Under the pieces are notes generated by a model. The model was not told the DNA's origin, searched no databases, and saw nothing but the letters and a program-made list of their open reading frames with translations. Of a stretch of 64,000 nt of DNA, positions 43,799 through 61,531 are shown piece by piece (the stretch's first letter is position 1; each line of letters begins with the position of its first letter). Both the position numbers and the translations under genes were made by a program. The stretch is taken from NCBI RefSeq assembly GCF_054482525.1, contig NZ_CM137006.1. One strand, written 5' to 3'.

Positions 43799-45466
43799 TT
43801 ATTGCAAACGTTCTAATAAACGAGCCAGTTTTTTATTGCCGCCGGCGACTGGCGACCATTGGTAATGCACAACCGGTTTGCTGGCGCTTTGTAGCTCCAG
43901 CGCAAAGCTGCGTAATCCGATGTTAATCACGGCGACGTTTTCCAGTAATGACGGTGTGTGTTGCTGAGTGGCAGGCGAAAGCGGATGAATCAGCGCCGCT
44001 GCCAGCAATGTGGCTTCCGGCAGCGAACTCACTACCGCGATCCCCGCATCTTCCAGCGTGGCGATTTGTTGCGAGCGGCATTGCGGGTCACGTTCGGTGC
44101 CTGTCACCGTGGCAATGGCGTACAGCGGTTGGCTGTCTGAACGCGCGGCACAGGCTTTTTGCCAGGCGCTCACCAGCGAGGCGGCAGGATCGGCGGTCGC
44201 GCCGAAGCCAATCACGACATCAAGTAGCAATACGCGCACTGACGGTTTAGCGCCGAGATCGGCAATTAACTGGTTGCGTAAGGTTGGGTCGATCATCGGA
44301 TGGGGACGCCCGACGGTGTAGAAATCATCGCCGAGGTCAATGATCTGGTGACCATCGGCGTCGAGCATCATACCGTGATGATGGGTATCGTCGGCTACCA
44401 TACCAAGGTGCCCGGCAAGTAATCCCGCCGCTTCGGCGGCCAGCGTACCGCCGGTATACAAGCCGCAAATAAGTCCGCTGCTGACAGGTGCTATTGCGTT
44501 ACGTCGCGCCGTAATGCGTGAAAGCAGGCAAGACAGGCGAGCGGCCTCATCCAGCGAGGAGGCAAACCAGACATTCTCGTCGCGGGCCACCGCCGGGGTA
44601 TAACCTAAAAACAGCGCCACCGTCGGTTTGCCGGTTGCTTTCATGGCATTAACAATTTTCAGACGCACAGCTTCGGCAGGTGGTTTTGAAACAAATGCCA
44701 GCACCTCGCTTTTCGCATCGGCGCTTAACATTTCCAGCGCCGTTAGCGCACTGATGCCGCCCACTTCACGGCTGAGATCGCGCCCGCCAAGACCAATCGC
44801 GTGGGTAATTCCCTCCCCTGCCAGCGCAATCTGTGAGCACAGCTCCTGAATCCCGGTACCGGAAGCGCCAATGACGCCAATGTTGCCTTCCGGCATCACG
44901 TTAGCAAAAGCCAGCGGCGTGGCGGCAATCATTGACGTACCGCAGTCCGGCCCCATCACCAGCAAGCCTTTATCGCGTGCGCGGGTTTTGAGTTGGATTT
45001 CATCTTCCAGCGTGACGTTATCGGAGAACATCATCACGTTGAGGTTGCGATCCAGCGCCTGATTCGCCAGCTCCGCCGCATATTCGCCAGCCACTGAAAT
45101 CAGCGCCAGACTGGCGTCGGGTAATTTCTGACAGGCACTGTCCCAGCGACGCACCTGCGTCAACGCCTGGCTGCTGGCTGACCCCTGCGCCAGTTGTTTT
45201 AGCGCCTCTTCAAGCTGCTGCATAATCGCCTGCGCGATCCCCGCATCCGCCGCTTCGCTACGAATTGCCACGCAAATATCGTTCGGCGTGGCGTTATTAA
45301 AATCGTCATGCCAGAAACCTGTGGTATCTAATAACGCTTTATTGGCGGGCGTACCCATCATTACGGAAACATCATCAACATTTTCTGATTCGCTGAGTTT
45401 TCGTGAAATAATCATTAAACTGACCGAATCCTGAAAACACCCTTTTTTAATAAAGGCGTGGATCAT
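43799..45466 (-). CDS. fdrA: FdrA (CoA-ligase-like / succinyl-CoA synthetase alpha-like)
   Basis: 555-aa ORF MIHAFIKKGCFQDSVSLMIISRKL... Confidence 0.88.
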   Translation of the reverse strand: MIHAFIKKGCFQDSVSLMIISRKLSESENVDDVSVMMGTPANKALLDTTGFWHDDFNNATPNDICVAIRSEAADAGIAQAIMQQLEEALKQLAQGSASSQALTQVRRWDSACQKLPDASLALISVAGEYAAELANQALDRNLNVMMFSDNVTLEDEIQLKTRARDKGLLVMGPDCGTSMIAATPLAFANVMPEGNIGVIGASGTGIQELCSQIALAGEGITHAIGLGGRDLSREVGGISALTALEMLSADAKSEVLAFVSKPPAEAVRLKIVNAMKATGKPTVALFLGYTPAVARDENVWFASSLDEAARLSCLLSRITARRNAIAPVSSGLICGLYTGGTLAAEAAGLLAGHLGMVADDTHHHGMMLDADGHQIIDLGDDFYTVGRPHPMIDPTLRNQLIADLGAKPSVRVLLLDVVIGFGATADPAASLVSAWQKACAARSDSQPLYAIATVTGTERDPQCRSQQIATLEDAGIAVVSSLPEATLLAAALIHPLSPATQQHTPSLLENVAVINIGLRSFALELQSASKPVVHYQWSPVAGGNKKLARLLERLQ

Positions 45467-45782
45467 AACAACTCCTTAAAAATTGCACCCATGGCAATTG
45501 CACGAGCAGTGTTAATGTGGCAATTACGGTATCGATGGTCGGTGACAAATAAGGTGATGAATATCACACAGAGATTATTAACAAAAGAATTCAAATAACC
45601 GCCACGCTATTACGTGTTATTTTTTAATAAGCGTGGTTGTTTTAAAAACCAGGTTAAAAGCGAGCGGATTATCAAATAAATTCTAACTATATTTTTTTGC
45701 CTGTCTGGATCACATAATCCAGATATTTTCCCTGTATGTTAATTGCAGTCATGCTTCACACCGTCGTTAAAAAGGAAGACAG

Positions 45783-46832
45783 ATGAAAATCAGTCGGGAA
45801 ACACTCCACCAGCTAATCGAGAATAAACTCTGCCAGGCTGGGTTAAAACGTGAGCACGCTGCAACCGTGGCTGAAGTATTGGTTTACGCCGATGCCAGAG
45901 GGATCCACTCTCATGGCGCGGTGCGTGTTGAATACTACGCAGAACGCATTTCAAAAGGCGGCACCAACCGTGAACCGGAATTTCGTCTTGAAGAAACCGG
46001 GCCGTGTTCGGCAATTTTACATGCCGACAATGCCGCCGGACAGGTCGCGGCGAAAATGGGTATGGAACATGCCATCAAAACCGCCCAGCAAAATGGCGTT
46101 GCGGTGGTCGGTATCAGCCGGATGGGTCACAGCGGCGCAATCTCTTATTTTGTACAGCAGGCAGCTCGCGCCGGGTTAATTGGCATTTCGATGTGCCAGT
46201 CCGATCCAATGGTGGTGCCGTTTGGCGGCGCGGAAATTTACTACGGAACTAACCCACTGGCCTTTGCCGCGCCGGGAGAAGGCGACGAGATCCTTACCTT
46301 TGATATGGCGACTACCGTACAGGCATGGGGAAAAGTGCTCGACGCCCGCTCGCGTAATATGTCTATCTCGGATACCTGGGCGGTCGATAAAAACGGAGCA
46401 CCAACAACCGATCCATTTGCAGTTAACGCCCTGCTCCCTGCCGCCGGACCGAAAGGGTATGGCCTGATGATGATGATTGACGTCCTCTCAGGCGTCTTAC
46501 TCGGCTTACCGTTCGGGCGACAGGTTAGTTCGATGTATGACGATTTACACGCCGGGCGTAATTTGGGGCAATTACATATCGTTATTAACCCGAACTTTTT
46601 CTCCTCCAGCGAACTATTCCGTCAACATCTTAGCCAGACCATGCGCGAATTAAATGCCATAACCCCCGCGCCCGGTTTTAACCAGGTTTATTATCCCGGA
46701 CAGGATCAGGATATTAAACAACGCAAAGCCGCCGTCGAAGGCATCGAAATTGTTGATGATATTTACCAGTATTTAATTTCCGACGCGCTTTATAACACGT
46801 CATACGAAACGAAAAATCCCTTTGCGCAATAA
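45783..46832 (+). CDS. allD: Ureidoglycolate dehydrogenase AllD
   Basis: 349-aa ORF, Ldh_2 family. Confidence 0.9.
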   Translation: MKISRETLHQLIENKLCQAGLKREHAATVAEVLVYADARGIHSHGAVRVEYYAERISKGGTNREPEFRLEETGPCSAILHADNAAGQVAAKMGMEHAIKTAQQNGVAVVGISRMGHSGAISYFVQQAARAGLIGISMCQSDPMVVPFGGAEIYYGTNPLAFAAPGEGDEILTFDMATTVQAWGKVLDARSRNMSISDTWAVDKNGAPTTDPFAVNALLPAAGPKGYGLMMMIDVLSGVLLGLPFGRQVSSMYDDLHAGRNLGQLHIVINPNFFSSSELFRQHLSQTMRELNAITPAPGFNQVYYPGQDQDIKQRKAAVEGIEIVDDIYQYLISDALYNTSYETKNPFAQ

Positions 46833-47155
46833 TTATTGAGACAGGACTTTCTTATGATTACACATTTTCGTCAAGCCATAGAAGAAACGCTGCCCTGGCT
46901 TTCCTCTTTTGGCGCTGACCCAACGGGTGGGATGACCCGTTTACTTTATTCGCCGGAATGGCTGGAAACTCAGCAGCAATTTAAAAAAAGAATGGCAGCA
47001 AGCGGGCTGGAAACACGTTTCGATGAAGTGGGGAATTTATATGGTCGCCTGAGTGGCACCGAATATCCACAAGAAGTGGTTCTGAGCGGTTCGCATATCG
47101 GGTGATGCTGCCAACTTACTGATTTAGTGTATGATGGTGTTTTTGAGGTGCTCCA

Positions 47156-47431
47156 GTGGCTTCTGTTTCTATCAGCTGTCCCTCCTGTTCAGCTACTGAC
47201 GGGGTGGTGCGTAACGGCAAAAGCACCGCCGGACATCAGCGCTATCTCTGCTCTCACTGCCGTAAAACATGGCAACTGCAGTTCACTTACACCGCTTCTC
47301 AACCCGGTACGCACCAGAAAATCATTGATATGGCCATGAATGGCGTTGGATGCCGGGCAACTGCCCGCATTATGGGCGTTGGCCTCAACACGATTTTACG
47401 TCACTTAAAAAACTCAGGCCGCAGTCGGTAA
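47156..47431 (+). CDS. insA: IS1 protein InsA
   Basis: 91-aa [43 protein letters not shown]... Confidence 0.93.
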
Positions 47432-47853
47432 CCTCGCGCATACAGCCGGGCAGTGACGTCATCGTCTGCGCGGAAATGGACGAACAGTGGGGCTATGTCG
47501 GGGCTAAATCGCGCCAGCGCTGGCTGTTTTACGCGTATGACAGTCTCCGGAAGACGGTTGTTGCGCACGTATTCGGTGAACGCACTATGGCGACGCTGGG
47601 GCGTCTTATGAGCCTGCTGTCACCCTTTGACGTGGTGATATGGATGACGGATGGCTGGCCGCTGTATGAATCCCGCCTGAAGGGAAAGCTGCACGTAATC
47701 AGCAAGCGATATACGCAGCGAATTGAGCGGCATAACCTGAATCTGAGGCAGCACCTGGCACGGCTGGGACGGAAGTCGCTGTCGTTCTCAAAATCGGTGG
47801 AGCTGCATGACAAAGTCATCGGGCATTATCTGAACATAAAACACTATCAATAA
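47350..47853 (+). CDS. insB: IS1 InsB reading frame (expressed as InsAB-prime by -1 frameshifting)
   Basis: 167-aa ORF in the -1 frame overlapping the insA 3-prime end. Confidence 0.88.
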
Positions 47854-48876
47854 GTTGGAGTCATTACCCGCATATCGATACCGTGGTTAACGGCGGTAAC
47901 CTCGACGGGCAATTCGGCGCGCTGGCGGCGTGGCTGGCAATTGACTGGTTGAAAACGCAATACGGCGCGCCGTTACGTACGGTCGAAGTGGTGGCGATGG
48001 CAGAAGAAGAAGGCAGCCGCTTCCCGTATGTCTTCTGGGGCAGTAAAAATATCTTTGGGCTGGCGAATCCTGACGACGTGCGGAATATCTGTGATGCCAA
48101 AGGAAATAGTTTTGTCGATGCGATGAAGGCTTGCGGATTTACTCTGCCGAACGCCCCACTAACTCCGCGTCAGGATATTAAAGCCTTTGTCGAACTGCAT
48201 ATCGAACAGGGCTGTGTGCTGGAAAGTAATGGGCAGTCAATTGGCGTGGTGAATGCAATTGTCGGGCAGCGTCGTTATACGGTGACGCTGAATGGCGAAT
48301 CAAACCATGCAGGCACCACGCCGATGGGTTATCGTCGTGATACGGTTTACGCTTTCAGTCGCATTTGCCATCAGTCGATCGAAAAAGCGAAAAAGATGGG
48401 CGACCCGCTGGTGCTGACCTTTGGCAAGGTGGAGCCGCGCCCGAATACGGTGAATGTGGTACCGGGTAAAACCACGTTCACCATTGATTGTCGTCATACC
48501 AACGCTGCCGTGCTGCGCGATTTCACCCAGCAGTTAGAAAACGACATGCGGGCGATTTGCGATGAAATGGACATTGGTATTGATATCGATTTATGGATGG
48601 ACGAAGAACCCGTGCCGATGAATAAGGACCTGGTCGCCACCCTGACAGAATTGTGTGAAAGAGAAAAACTGAATTACCGGGTGATGCACAGTGGTGCCGG
48701 GCACGACGCGCAAATTTTCGCGCCTCGCGTACCAACCTGCATGATTTTTATCCCCAGCATCAACGGGATCAGCCATAACCCGGCGGAACGCACCAATATT
48801 ACCGACCTTGCCGAAGGGGTCAAAACGTTGGCACTCATGCTTTATCAACTTGCCTGGCAGAAATAAGGAGTCATAA

Positions 48877-58929: not shown

Positions 58930-58946
58930 ATTGGAAAAATTTTCCA
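58930..58946. promoter_or_regulatory. Candidate AllR operator in the gcl promoter region
   Basis: Palindrome ttggaaaaattttccaa; a similar palindrome lies in the allA-allS intergenic region. Confidence 0.55.
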
Positions 58947-58999
58947 ACTTTCAAATTTTGTCAAAAAAACCCGCTCCGCAGAGCGGGATGCGACAGACA

Positions 59000-60480: not shown

Positions 60481-60497
60481 TTGGAATATTTTTCCAA
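60481..60497. promoter_or_regulatory. Candidate AllR operator in the allA / allS divergent region
   Basis: Palindrome ttggaatatttttccaa. Confidence 0.5.
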
Positions 60498-60604: not shown

Positions 60605-61531
60605 ATGTTCGATCCAGAAACCTTGCGGACTTTCATTGCGGTTGCTGAAACAGGAAGTTTTTCAAAAGCGGCAGAACGATTATGTAAAACCACGGCGACG
60701 ATCAGTTATCGCATTAAACTTCTGGAAGAGAATACCGGAGTGGCGCTGTTTTTCCGCACGACTCGCAGCGTGACGTTGACAGCGGCTGGCGAGCATCTAC
60801 TTTCTCAGGCCAGAGACTGGCTGAGCTGGCTGGAAAGTATGCCCAGCGAGCTGCAACAGGTGAATGATGGCGTGGAACGCCAGGTGAATATTGTCATCAA
60901 CAACCTGCTCTACAACCCCCAGGCCGTCGCCCAGCTGCTGGCGTGGCTGAATGAACGTTACCCCTTTACCCAGTTTCACATCTCCCGACAAATCTATATG
61001 GGCGTCTGGGACTCGCTATTGTACGAAGGTTTTTCACTGGCTATCGGCGTCACGGGAACCGAGGCGCTGGCAAATACCTTTAGTCTTGATCCCTTAGGAT
61101 CGGTGCAATGGCGCTTTGTCATGGCGGCGGATCATCCGCTGGCGAACGTTGAAGAGCCGCTAACAGAAGCTCAGTTGCGTCGCTTTCCGGCGGTCAATAT
61201 TGAAGACAGCGCCCGCACCTTAACCAAACGCGTCGCCTGGCGATTGCCAGGGCAAAAAGAGATTATTGTTCCTGATATGGAAACGAAAATCGCCGCCCAT
61301 CTGGCGGGCGTTGGCATTGGTTTTTTGCCAAAATCACTTTGCCAGTCAATGATTGATAATCAACAACTGGTCAGCCGGGTAATCCCAACGATGCGCCCGC
61401 CTTCGCCATTGAGTCTGGCATGGCGCAAATTTGGCAGCGGCAAAGCGGTAGAAGATATTGTGACCTTGTTTACCCAACGCAGGCCGGAAATCAGCGGATT
61501 TTTAGAAATTTTCGGCAACCCACGCAGTTAA
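60605..61531 (+). CDS. allS: LysR-family activator AllS
   Basis: 308-aa [45 protein letters not shown]... (LysR HTH). Confidence 0.92.

Follow-up and report, generated by a model that had tools for sequence, protein, structure and literature searches.

A conserved element within an inverted repeat upstream of allD in Escherichia coli, probably contacted by an activator of the allD promoter

The fdrA-allD intergenic region and its inverted repeat

The allantoin regulon is a textbook system of E. coli. The stretch of DNA analysed here (64 kb, referred to as the window) is from this species: the 651 bases around the repeat described below match PCN033, among other strains, at 100% identity, and the repeat region is carried by 5358 of the 5426 complete E. 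coli genomes. The window includes the whole allantoin cluster, allS too. The genes fdrA (allF) and allD, named in agreement with the annotation of other E. coli genomes, diverge from a spacer of 316 bp. In K-12 MG1655 this spacer is likewise 316 bp long, without any difference from the window between 45662 and the allD ATG. The genes and the parts of the repeat are as follows.

43799..45466, minus strand: fdrA/allF coding sequence, oxamate carbamoyltransferase subunit, ATG at 45466 (annotation)
45783..46832, plus strand: allD coding sequence, ureidoglycolate dehydrogenase, ATG at 45783 (annotation)
45704..45710, plus strand: left arm of the repeat, TCTGGAT, read from the sequence
45711..45716, plus strand: spacer of the repeat, CACATA, its first four bases within the invariant GATCACA core
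45717..45723, plus strand: right arm of the repeat, ATCCAGA, Escherichia-specific, read from the sequence

A perfect 7-bp inverted repeat had been noted in this divergent region at about 60 bp before allD, and both the structure and the distance were borne out: TCTGGAT-CACATA-ATCCAGA occupies 45704-45723 and ends 59 nt from the allD ATG. The complementarity of the arms is 100% and no further Watson-Crick extension is possible. When the AT-rich 316-bp region was shuffled 5000 times with dinucleotides preserved, a perfect 7-bp inverted repeat appeared in 19.5% of the shuffles with a spacer of at most 6 and in 31% with a spacer of at most 12. Across the whole 64-kb window 55 such repeats were counted, corresponding to 0.27 per 316 bp. 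Because shuffled sequences yield equally good repeats at this frequency, significance of the repeat by itself was rejected, and the repeat alone is no evidence of function. A second copy of the exact motif was not found in the 64-kb window, even with up to 2 mismatches allowed. A regulon of like palindromes or of CTGGATCACAT copies in the allantoin cluster was also rejected, as none was found in regulatory DNA.

The same gene cluster contains operators of AllR (TGGAA-N7-TTCCA), at the following positions.

58931..58947: AllR operator TTGGAAAAATTTTCCAA, upstream of gcl, as expected
60481..60496: AllR operator TTGGAATATTTTTCCA, between allA and allS, as expected

The repeat likewise has a TGGA...TCCA symmetry but differs from these operators in half-site (CTGGAT) and in spacing. 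Its identity as an AllR operator was rejected, since the TTGGAAAA(A)TTTTCCAA palindrome matched only at the two positions listed. Deletion of allR has been reported to be without effect on allF-lacZ (PMC12535856).

Downstream of the region, a 768-bp IS1 was observed inside allC (47101-47868), with 9-bp target duplications, CGCATATCG, at 47092-47100 and 47869-47877 and with the open reading frames InsA (47156-47431) and InsB (47350-47853). Strain PCN033, otherwise identical, is without the allC IS1. The allDCE operon of the window strain is therefore broken after allD, and the use of allantoin as a nitrogen source by this strain has probably been lost.

Conservation of the left half and the predicted allD promoter

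Eighty loci encoding relatives of AllD were retrieved. In 33 loci of the Enterobacterales fdrA and allD were divergent neighbours, 295-507 bp apart; the genera were Escherichia, Citrobacter, Klebsiella, Raoultella, Superficieibacter, Atlantibacter, Buttiauxella, Serratia, Erwinia, Pantoea, Budvicia, Pragia, and Providencia. The comparisons cover 34 fdrA-allD intergenic regions, and an alignment of 18 genomes (A2) has a mean column identity of 71%. The full palindrome is confined to Escherichia, being perfect in the window, in K-12 and in locus L004 and matching at 6/7 in E. whittamii. The right arm was not found in 32 other Enterobacterales loci, including those of Citrobacter, Klebsiella, Serratia, and Erwinia; at its position Citrobacter has ATCAATT or TTAGATT. 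An inverted repeat of at least 5 bp at the repeat region is absent from 24 of the 32 non-Escherichia loci. Conservation of the palindrome across the Enterobacteriaceae, which had been named as a check on the original prediction, did not hold, with the right arm in Escherichia only.

The left arm is largely kept outside Escherichia, as TCTGGAT or nCAGAT. GATCACA, which runs from the left arm into the spacer, is the sole 7-mer common to all 34 intergenic regions and is invariant in alignment A2. The idea that the repeat is a regulatory site for allD can be retained in part: the left half is very probably regulatory, whereas the palindrome as a whole is not conserved. Of 5318 E. coli genomes, 4840 show no difference over 45680-45760, and three sampled variants have changes in the T-run at 45694-45698 with the repeat untouched; this identity proves no constraint, as the species is too uniform. 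Inverted repeats of the form CTGGA...TCCAG surround GATCACA in three loci of Serratia proteamaculans and Erwinia (L081, L041, and L047), with spacers of 9 and 15 nt versus 8 in E. coli. Their recurrence may be a chance reappearance of the 5-mer.

Two conserved elements outline a predicted allD promoter.

45708..45714, plus strand: invariant core GATCACA, the proposed functional unit, spanning -39 to -33 relative to the predicted allD start
45735..45740, plus strand: predicted allD -10 hexamer TATGTT, a conserved TAnnnT at fixed spacing

The TAnnnT lies exactly 20 nt past GATCACA in 32 of the 34 sequences. It takes the form TATGTT or TATTTT in the Enterobacteriaceae and TACATT in Serratia, Erwinia, and Providencia, and the bases G,T,A,T,n,n,T of this region are invariant in A2. 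If 45735-45740 is read as the allD -10, transcription is predicted to start near 45747 with a 36-nt leader, and relative to this predicted start the repeat covers -43 to -24. The sequence 17 bp upstream of the -10 is ACATAA, which is no -35 hexamer, so the allD promoter should depend on an activator. A leftward promoter returned by a scan, CAGACA-16-TAGAAT, was considered less likely than the rightward one, as its spacing is 16 in Escherichia versus 18 in Serratia and that of the rightward promoter is fixed. In E. coli GCEC19 (L086) an IS1 was observed in the repeat spacer, at about window position 45711, which parts GATCACA from the allD -10; the allD promoter of this strain is probably inactivated.

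The left half of the repeat coincides with the most conserved element of the control region, and an activator probably makes contact with this element near -35 of the allD promoter. We have considerable confidence that the palindrome is incidental and that its conserved left half serves an activator or the -35 region.

CRP-type elements at the allD and allF promoters

The element at allD resembles one half of a CRP site, and a complete CRP palindrome is found at the divergent allF promoter.

45704..45717, plus strand: extended element TCTGGATCACATAA, matching the extended CRP half-site consensus TCTAGATCACATTT
45553..45568, no strand assigned: complete CRP palindrome GGTGATGAATATCACA, near position -41.5 relative to the predicted allF start
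45526..45531, minus strand: predicted allF -10 hexamer TACCGT, with a predicted start near 45519

At allD, 10-13 of the 14 bases of this element agree with the extended half-site consensus in each of the 34 genomes, and the reverse complement of TCTGGATCACA, TGTGATCCAGA, is a perfect CRP half-site with a consensus-like inner spacer. TCACA makes a proximal half without mismatch; GCCTG, in the distal position (45699-45703), scores 0/5. In all 34 species the distal half TGTGA has only 0-2 of 5 matches at this position. A two-half site of the form TGTGA-N6-TCACA at the allD element was rejected on the 0/5 score. Scored with a CRP weight matrix as a dimer site, the 20-mer reaches 1.3 bits and rank 247 in the window, which is outside the range of 39 known CRP training sites (minimum 9.7 bits, median 17.0). 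The allD element is not among the <10 nM sites in Table 1 of the Footprint-seq study (PMC12871828). The same study lists ~10 nM CRP sites with one good half, for example TCCGC...TCACA, so that single-half-site CRP binding is documented. The study reports 1,217 CRP-bound regions (PMC12871828, Table S2). Literature searches for an allD start site or for CRP dependence of allD found nothing. The published growth conditions, glycerol plus DMSO, are compatible with active CRP.

At allF, GGTGATGAATATCACA ranks first among the CRP weight-matrix matches of the window, at 18.5 bits, and GTGA-N6-TCAC was found in 31 of the 34 intergenic regions. A 2026 preprint has reported the site as a novel in vitro CRP site with a Kd of 9.8 nM, at K-12 position 546586 and under the label 'allD / fdrA' (PMC12871828, Table 1). 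The TAnnnT of the allF promoter is fixed at 22 nt past the TCAC of the palindrome across genera, and in A2 the T, A, C, and T of the allF -10 are invariant. As the allF start is predicted near 45519, the palindrome would be at about -41.5, a class II position. The arrangement at allD is alike, TCACA preceding the -10 by 20 nt, and only the proximal half is present.

Two further observations concern the allF side. The palindrome at 45553-45568 lies inside the -142/-83 fragment that was shifted in a published study and assigned to ArcA, for which sites were predicted at -117, -134, and -163; CRP is unmentioned there (PMC12535856). The repeated motifs AATTGCAC / GCAATTGCAC (AATTGCACCCATGGCAATTGCACGAGCA) at 45481-45508 stand immediately before the ribosome-binding site of allF, within its predicted 5' leader. 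They are kept in most Enterobacteriaceae of A2, and a scan reports them as a terminator-like hairpin on the minus strand.

In the mechanism proposed here, the functional unit at allD would be the left arm plus the spacer, TCTGGATCACAT, with GATCACA as its core, and the palindrome would be an Escherichia-only by-product. GATCACA at -39 to -33 would be at the contact position of an activator that overlaps the -35 region with RNA polymerase. A cAMP-CRP dimer may dock via one specific half-site, with its centre at ~45706.5 (near K-12 546,440), about -40.5 from the predicted allD start, and may then activate allD by a class II mechanism. AllS bound upstream, at the box at 45672-45686 and/or at the published site near 45647, would assist CRP, and the arrangement would mirror that of the divergent allF promoter with its full palindrome. 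The allD and allF start sites, CRP occupancy of the half-site and the cooperation of AllS are what we infer. CRP as the protein at the conserved allD element is a tentative identification, somewhat short of probable.

The candidate can be compared with class II CRP promoters, which have the site centre within about 1 bp of -41.5 (e.g., galP1), and specifically with the allF site. The allD promoter resembles them in having TCACA 20-21 nt before a weak -10 and in lacking a -35 hexamer. It resembles them further in that the half-site match runs into the spacer and the A/T flank and in that the layout is kept across Enterobacterales. As a candidate CRP promoter it differs from them in having one half-site and a score far below known sites.

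AllS, other explanations and implications

AllS is the sole activator so far shown to be necessary for allD, and three features bear on its site.

60605..61531, plus strand: allS, LysR-type activator of allD and allF (Pfam HTH_1 and LysR_substrate), divergent from allA
45610..45669, no strand assigned: published AllS-binding fragment, allFp -203/-144 (PMC12535856, converted coordinates)
45667..45687, plus strand: conserved box GATTATCAAATAAATTCTAAC, a candidate LysR-type (AllS) recognition site (A2 and an anchored alignment)

Expression of allD requires AllS (Rintoul 2002, as cited in PMC12535856). In a PRODORIC scan, Kim & Kim (2025) placed the centre of an AllS site, scored 1.0, at -181 relative to the allF ATG, and they observed a shift of the 60-bp fragment -203/-144 by AllS-containing lysate (PMC12535856); the assay used crude lysates with only unrelated protein as control and is modest evidence. 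OxyR (-224) and SoxS (-237) sites were also predicted in that study, and the mutants were without real effect. The allF-based positions were converted to window coordinates via the equal 316-bp intergenic length in K-12, which places the predicted AllS centre at ~45647, at an AT-rich dyad TTTTAA-N8-TTAAAA (45640-45659).

The repeat had been proposed as the AllS site for allD, and comparison with the published mapping does not support this. In allF coordinates the repeat runs from -238 to -257, beyond the AllS fragment; its centre (45713.5) is ~66 bp from the AllS centre, and the two sites share the intergenic region and the regulon. As a dyad the repeat is 20 bp long (7-N6-7) versus ~15 bp for LysR-type sites; the trivial T-N11-A is present (T45704...A45716).

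The published AllS region is poorly conserved outside Escherichia in A2. In Serratia the cluster is arranged alike, and the LysR gene that diverges from allA encodes a protein with 58% identity to AllS and a recognition helix identical to that of E. coli AllS; AllS sites should therefore be conserved between E. coli and Serratia. A better-conserved candidate than the published site may be the GATTATCAAATAAATTCTAAC box, judged from sequence comparison. It contains a dyad TCA-N9-TAA (45672-45686) centred at about -68 of allD, and its equivalents are a perfect dyad TTCAAA-N5-TTTGAA in Erwinia and TTA-N9-TAA in Klebsiella. For YdhB, an E. coli paralogue of AllS, the motif TsttwTCAAwAwwwTTGaaGGCA has been proposed (bioRxiv 10.1101/2020.05.03.074617), and the box resembles its TCAA-N5-TTGA.

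Several sequence details of these two regions were also observed. K-12 has T at 45649 and 45661, which gives a TCA-N9-TGA dyad (TCAGGTTAAAAGTGA) within the published AllS region; in the window strain the two positions are C (CCA...CGA), and both halves of the dyad are weakened. In the region of the conserved box an exact ATA-N9-TAT is present at 45676-45690. The octamer TCAAATAA of the box recurs 81 bp away on the allF side, at 45591-45598.

LysR-type operators have a recognition site near -65 and an activation site near -35, and the activation site is usually the least conserved part. GATCACA could accordingly be read as the promoter-proximal activation site of AllS, with an AllS tetramer on the -68 box (TCAAATAAATTCTAA, 45672-45686) and on a weaker -35 site; this is a serious competitor of the CRP reading, albeit a less likely one. 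The requirement of allD for AllS agrees with such a reading, the box at ~-68 and the element at ~-36 suit the layout known from the operators of BenM, CbnR, and AtzR, and the box is both conserved and YdhB-like. Box and GATCACA are conserved together, whereas the published AllS region is not. Against this, GATCACA is more conserved than the putative recognition box and has only TCA in common with its half-sites. The fragment shifted by AllS is also farther upstream and does not contain GATCACA, and the centre of the published site is 60-65 bp off.

It is less likely still that GATCACA is bound by another factor, neither CRP nor AllS, or marks an unusual polymerase contact. The distal CRP half is present in none of the 34 species and GATCACA is little like the LysR-like box, both of which leave room for another protein, and the invariant GATC in the core is a Dam methylation site. 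Expression of allD is moreover anaerobic only, and the responsible regulator and the cause of aerobic silencing are unexplained (PMC12535856). However, FNR (TTGAT-N4-ATCAA), ArcA direct repeats, the sigma-54 -24/-12 elements and AllR were unmatched by eye, and the match to the CRP half-site consensus in 34 genomes would have to be coincidence. Motifs of FNR, ArcA, sigma-54, IHF, MarA/SoxS, and Fur were rejected by eye against their consensus sequences, the conserved bases being unmatched. An ArcA-like TGTTAATTG at 45737-45745 was rejected as it is not conserved outside Escherichia and Citrobacter in A2.

An improbable alternative takes the 7-6-7 palindrome as a true Escherichia operator for a dimeric regulator, for example an aerobic repressor of allD acting over -43 to -24. 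In its favour, E. coli and L004 have both arms in perfect symmetry (6/7 in E. whittamii), none of the E. coli variants sampled departs from it, the palindrome coincides with part of the core promoter, and the aerobic silencing of the allD promoter lacks an explanation (PMC12535856). The repeat is, on the other hand, statistically ordinary and without a second copy within the 64-kb window, its right arm is missing in all other genera despite conserved promoter architecture, and the uniformity of E. coli makes conservation within the species uninformative. We know of no E. coli regulator motif that matches the full palindrome. The extended proposal, that completion of the palindrome in Escherichia created a dimeric-repressor operator (-43 to -24 of the allD promoter) that silences allDCE aerobically and hence restricts allantoin use to anaerobiosis, is slightly more improbable again.

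A hairpin in RNA or DNA (terminator, attenuator or 5'-UTR stem-loop) is very improbable: a terminator scan flags 45702-45725 followed by TTTTCCC, the RNA fold reaches -10.9 kcal/mol (z = -3.2), and the alternative E. coli -10 TATATT (45688-45693) would place the repeat in the 5' UTR with the hairpin at +5 to +24, but no plus-strand gene ends upstream (fdrA is on the opposite strand), just 3 of the stem pairs are G-C and the U tail is 4 long, neither the right arm nor the hairpin is conserved or replaced by compensatory alternatives, TATATT is not positionally conserved in A2 or the anchored alignment, and with the conserved -10 downstream of it the repeat is probably not transcribed from the allD promoter. 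An intrinsic terminator was rejected on context and lack of conservation.

Promoters of the allantoin regulon are poorly mapped. For the proposed CRP-type arrangement, the comparison yields an architecture for both divergent promoters that can be tested, a CRP-type element ~20 nt before a weak -10. The allF promoter has both halves of this site; allD has a single half-site, and a conserved LysR-like box lies at ~-68 of allD. Genera in which AllS carries an identical recognition helix do not conserve the DNA at present regarded as the AllS site. If true, the architecture would be a new site in a known regulon and not a new kind of system; the AllS operator would be relocated or extended, and control by carbon status, through cAMP-CRP, would be added to a nitrogen-scavenging pathway.
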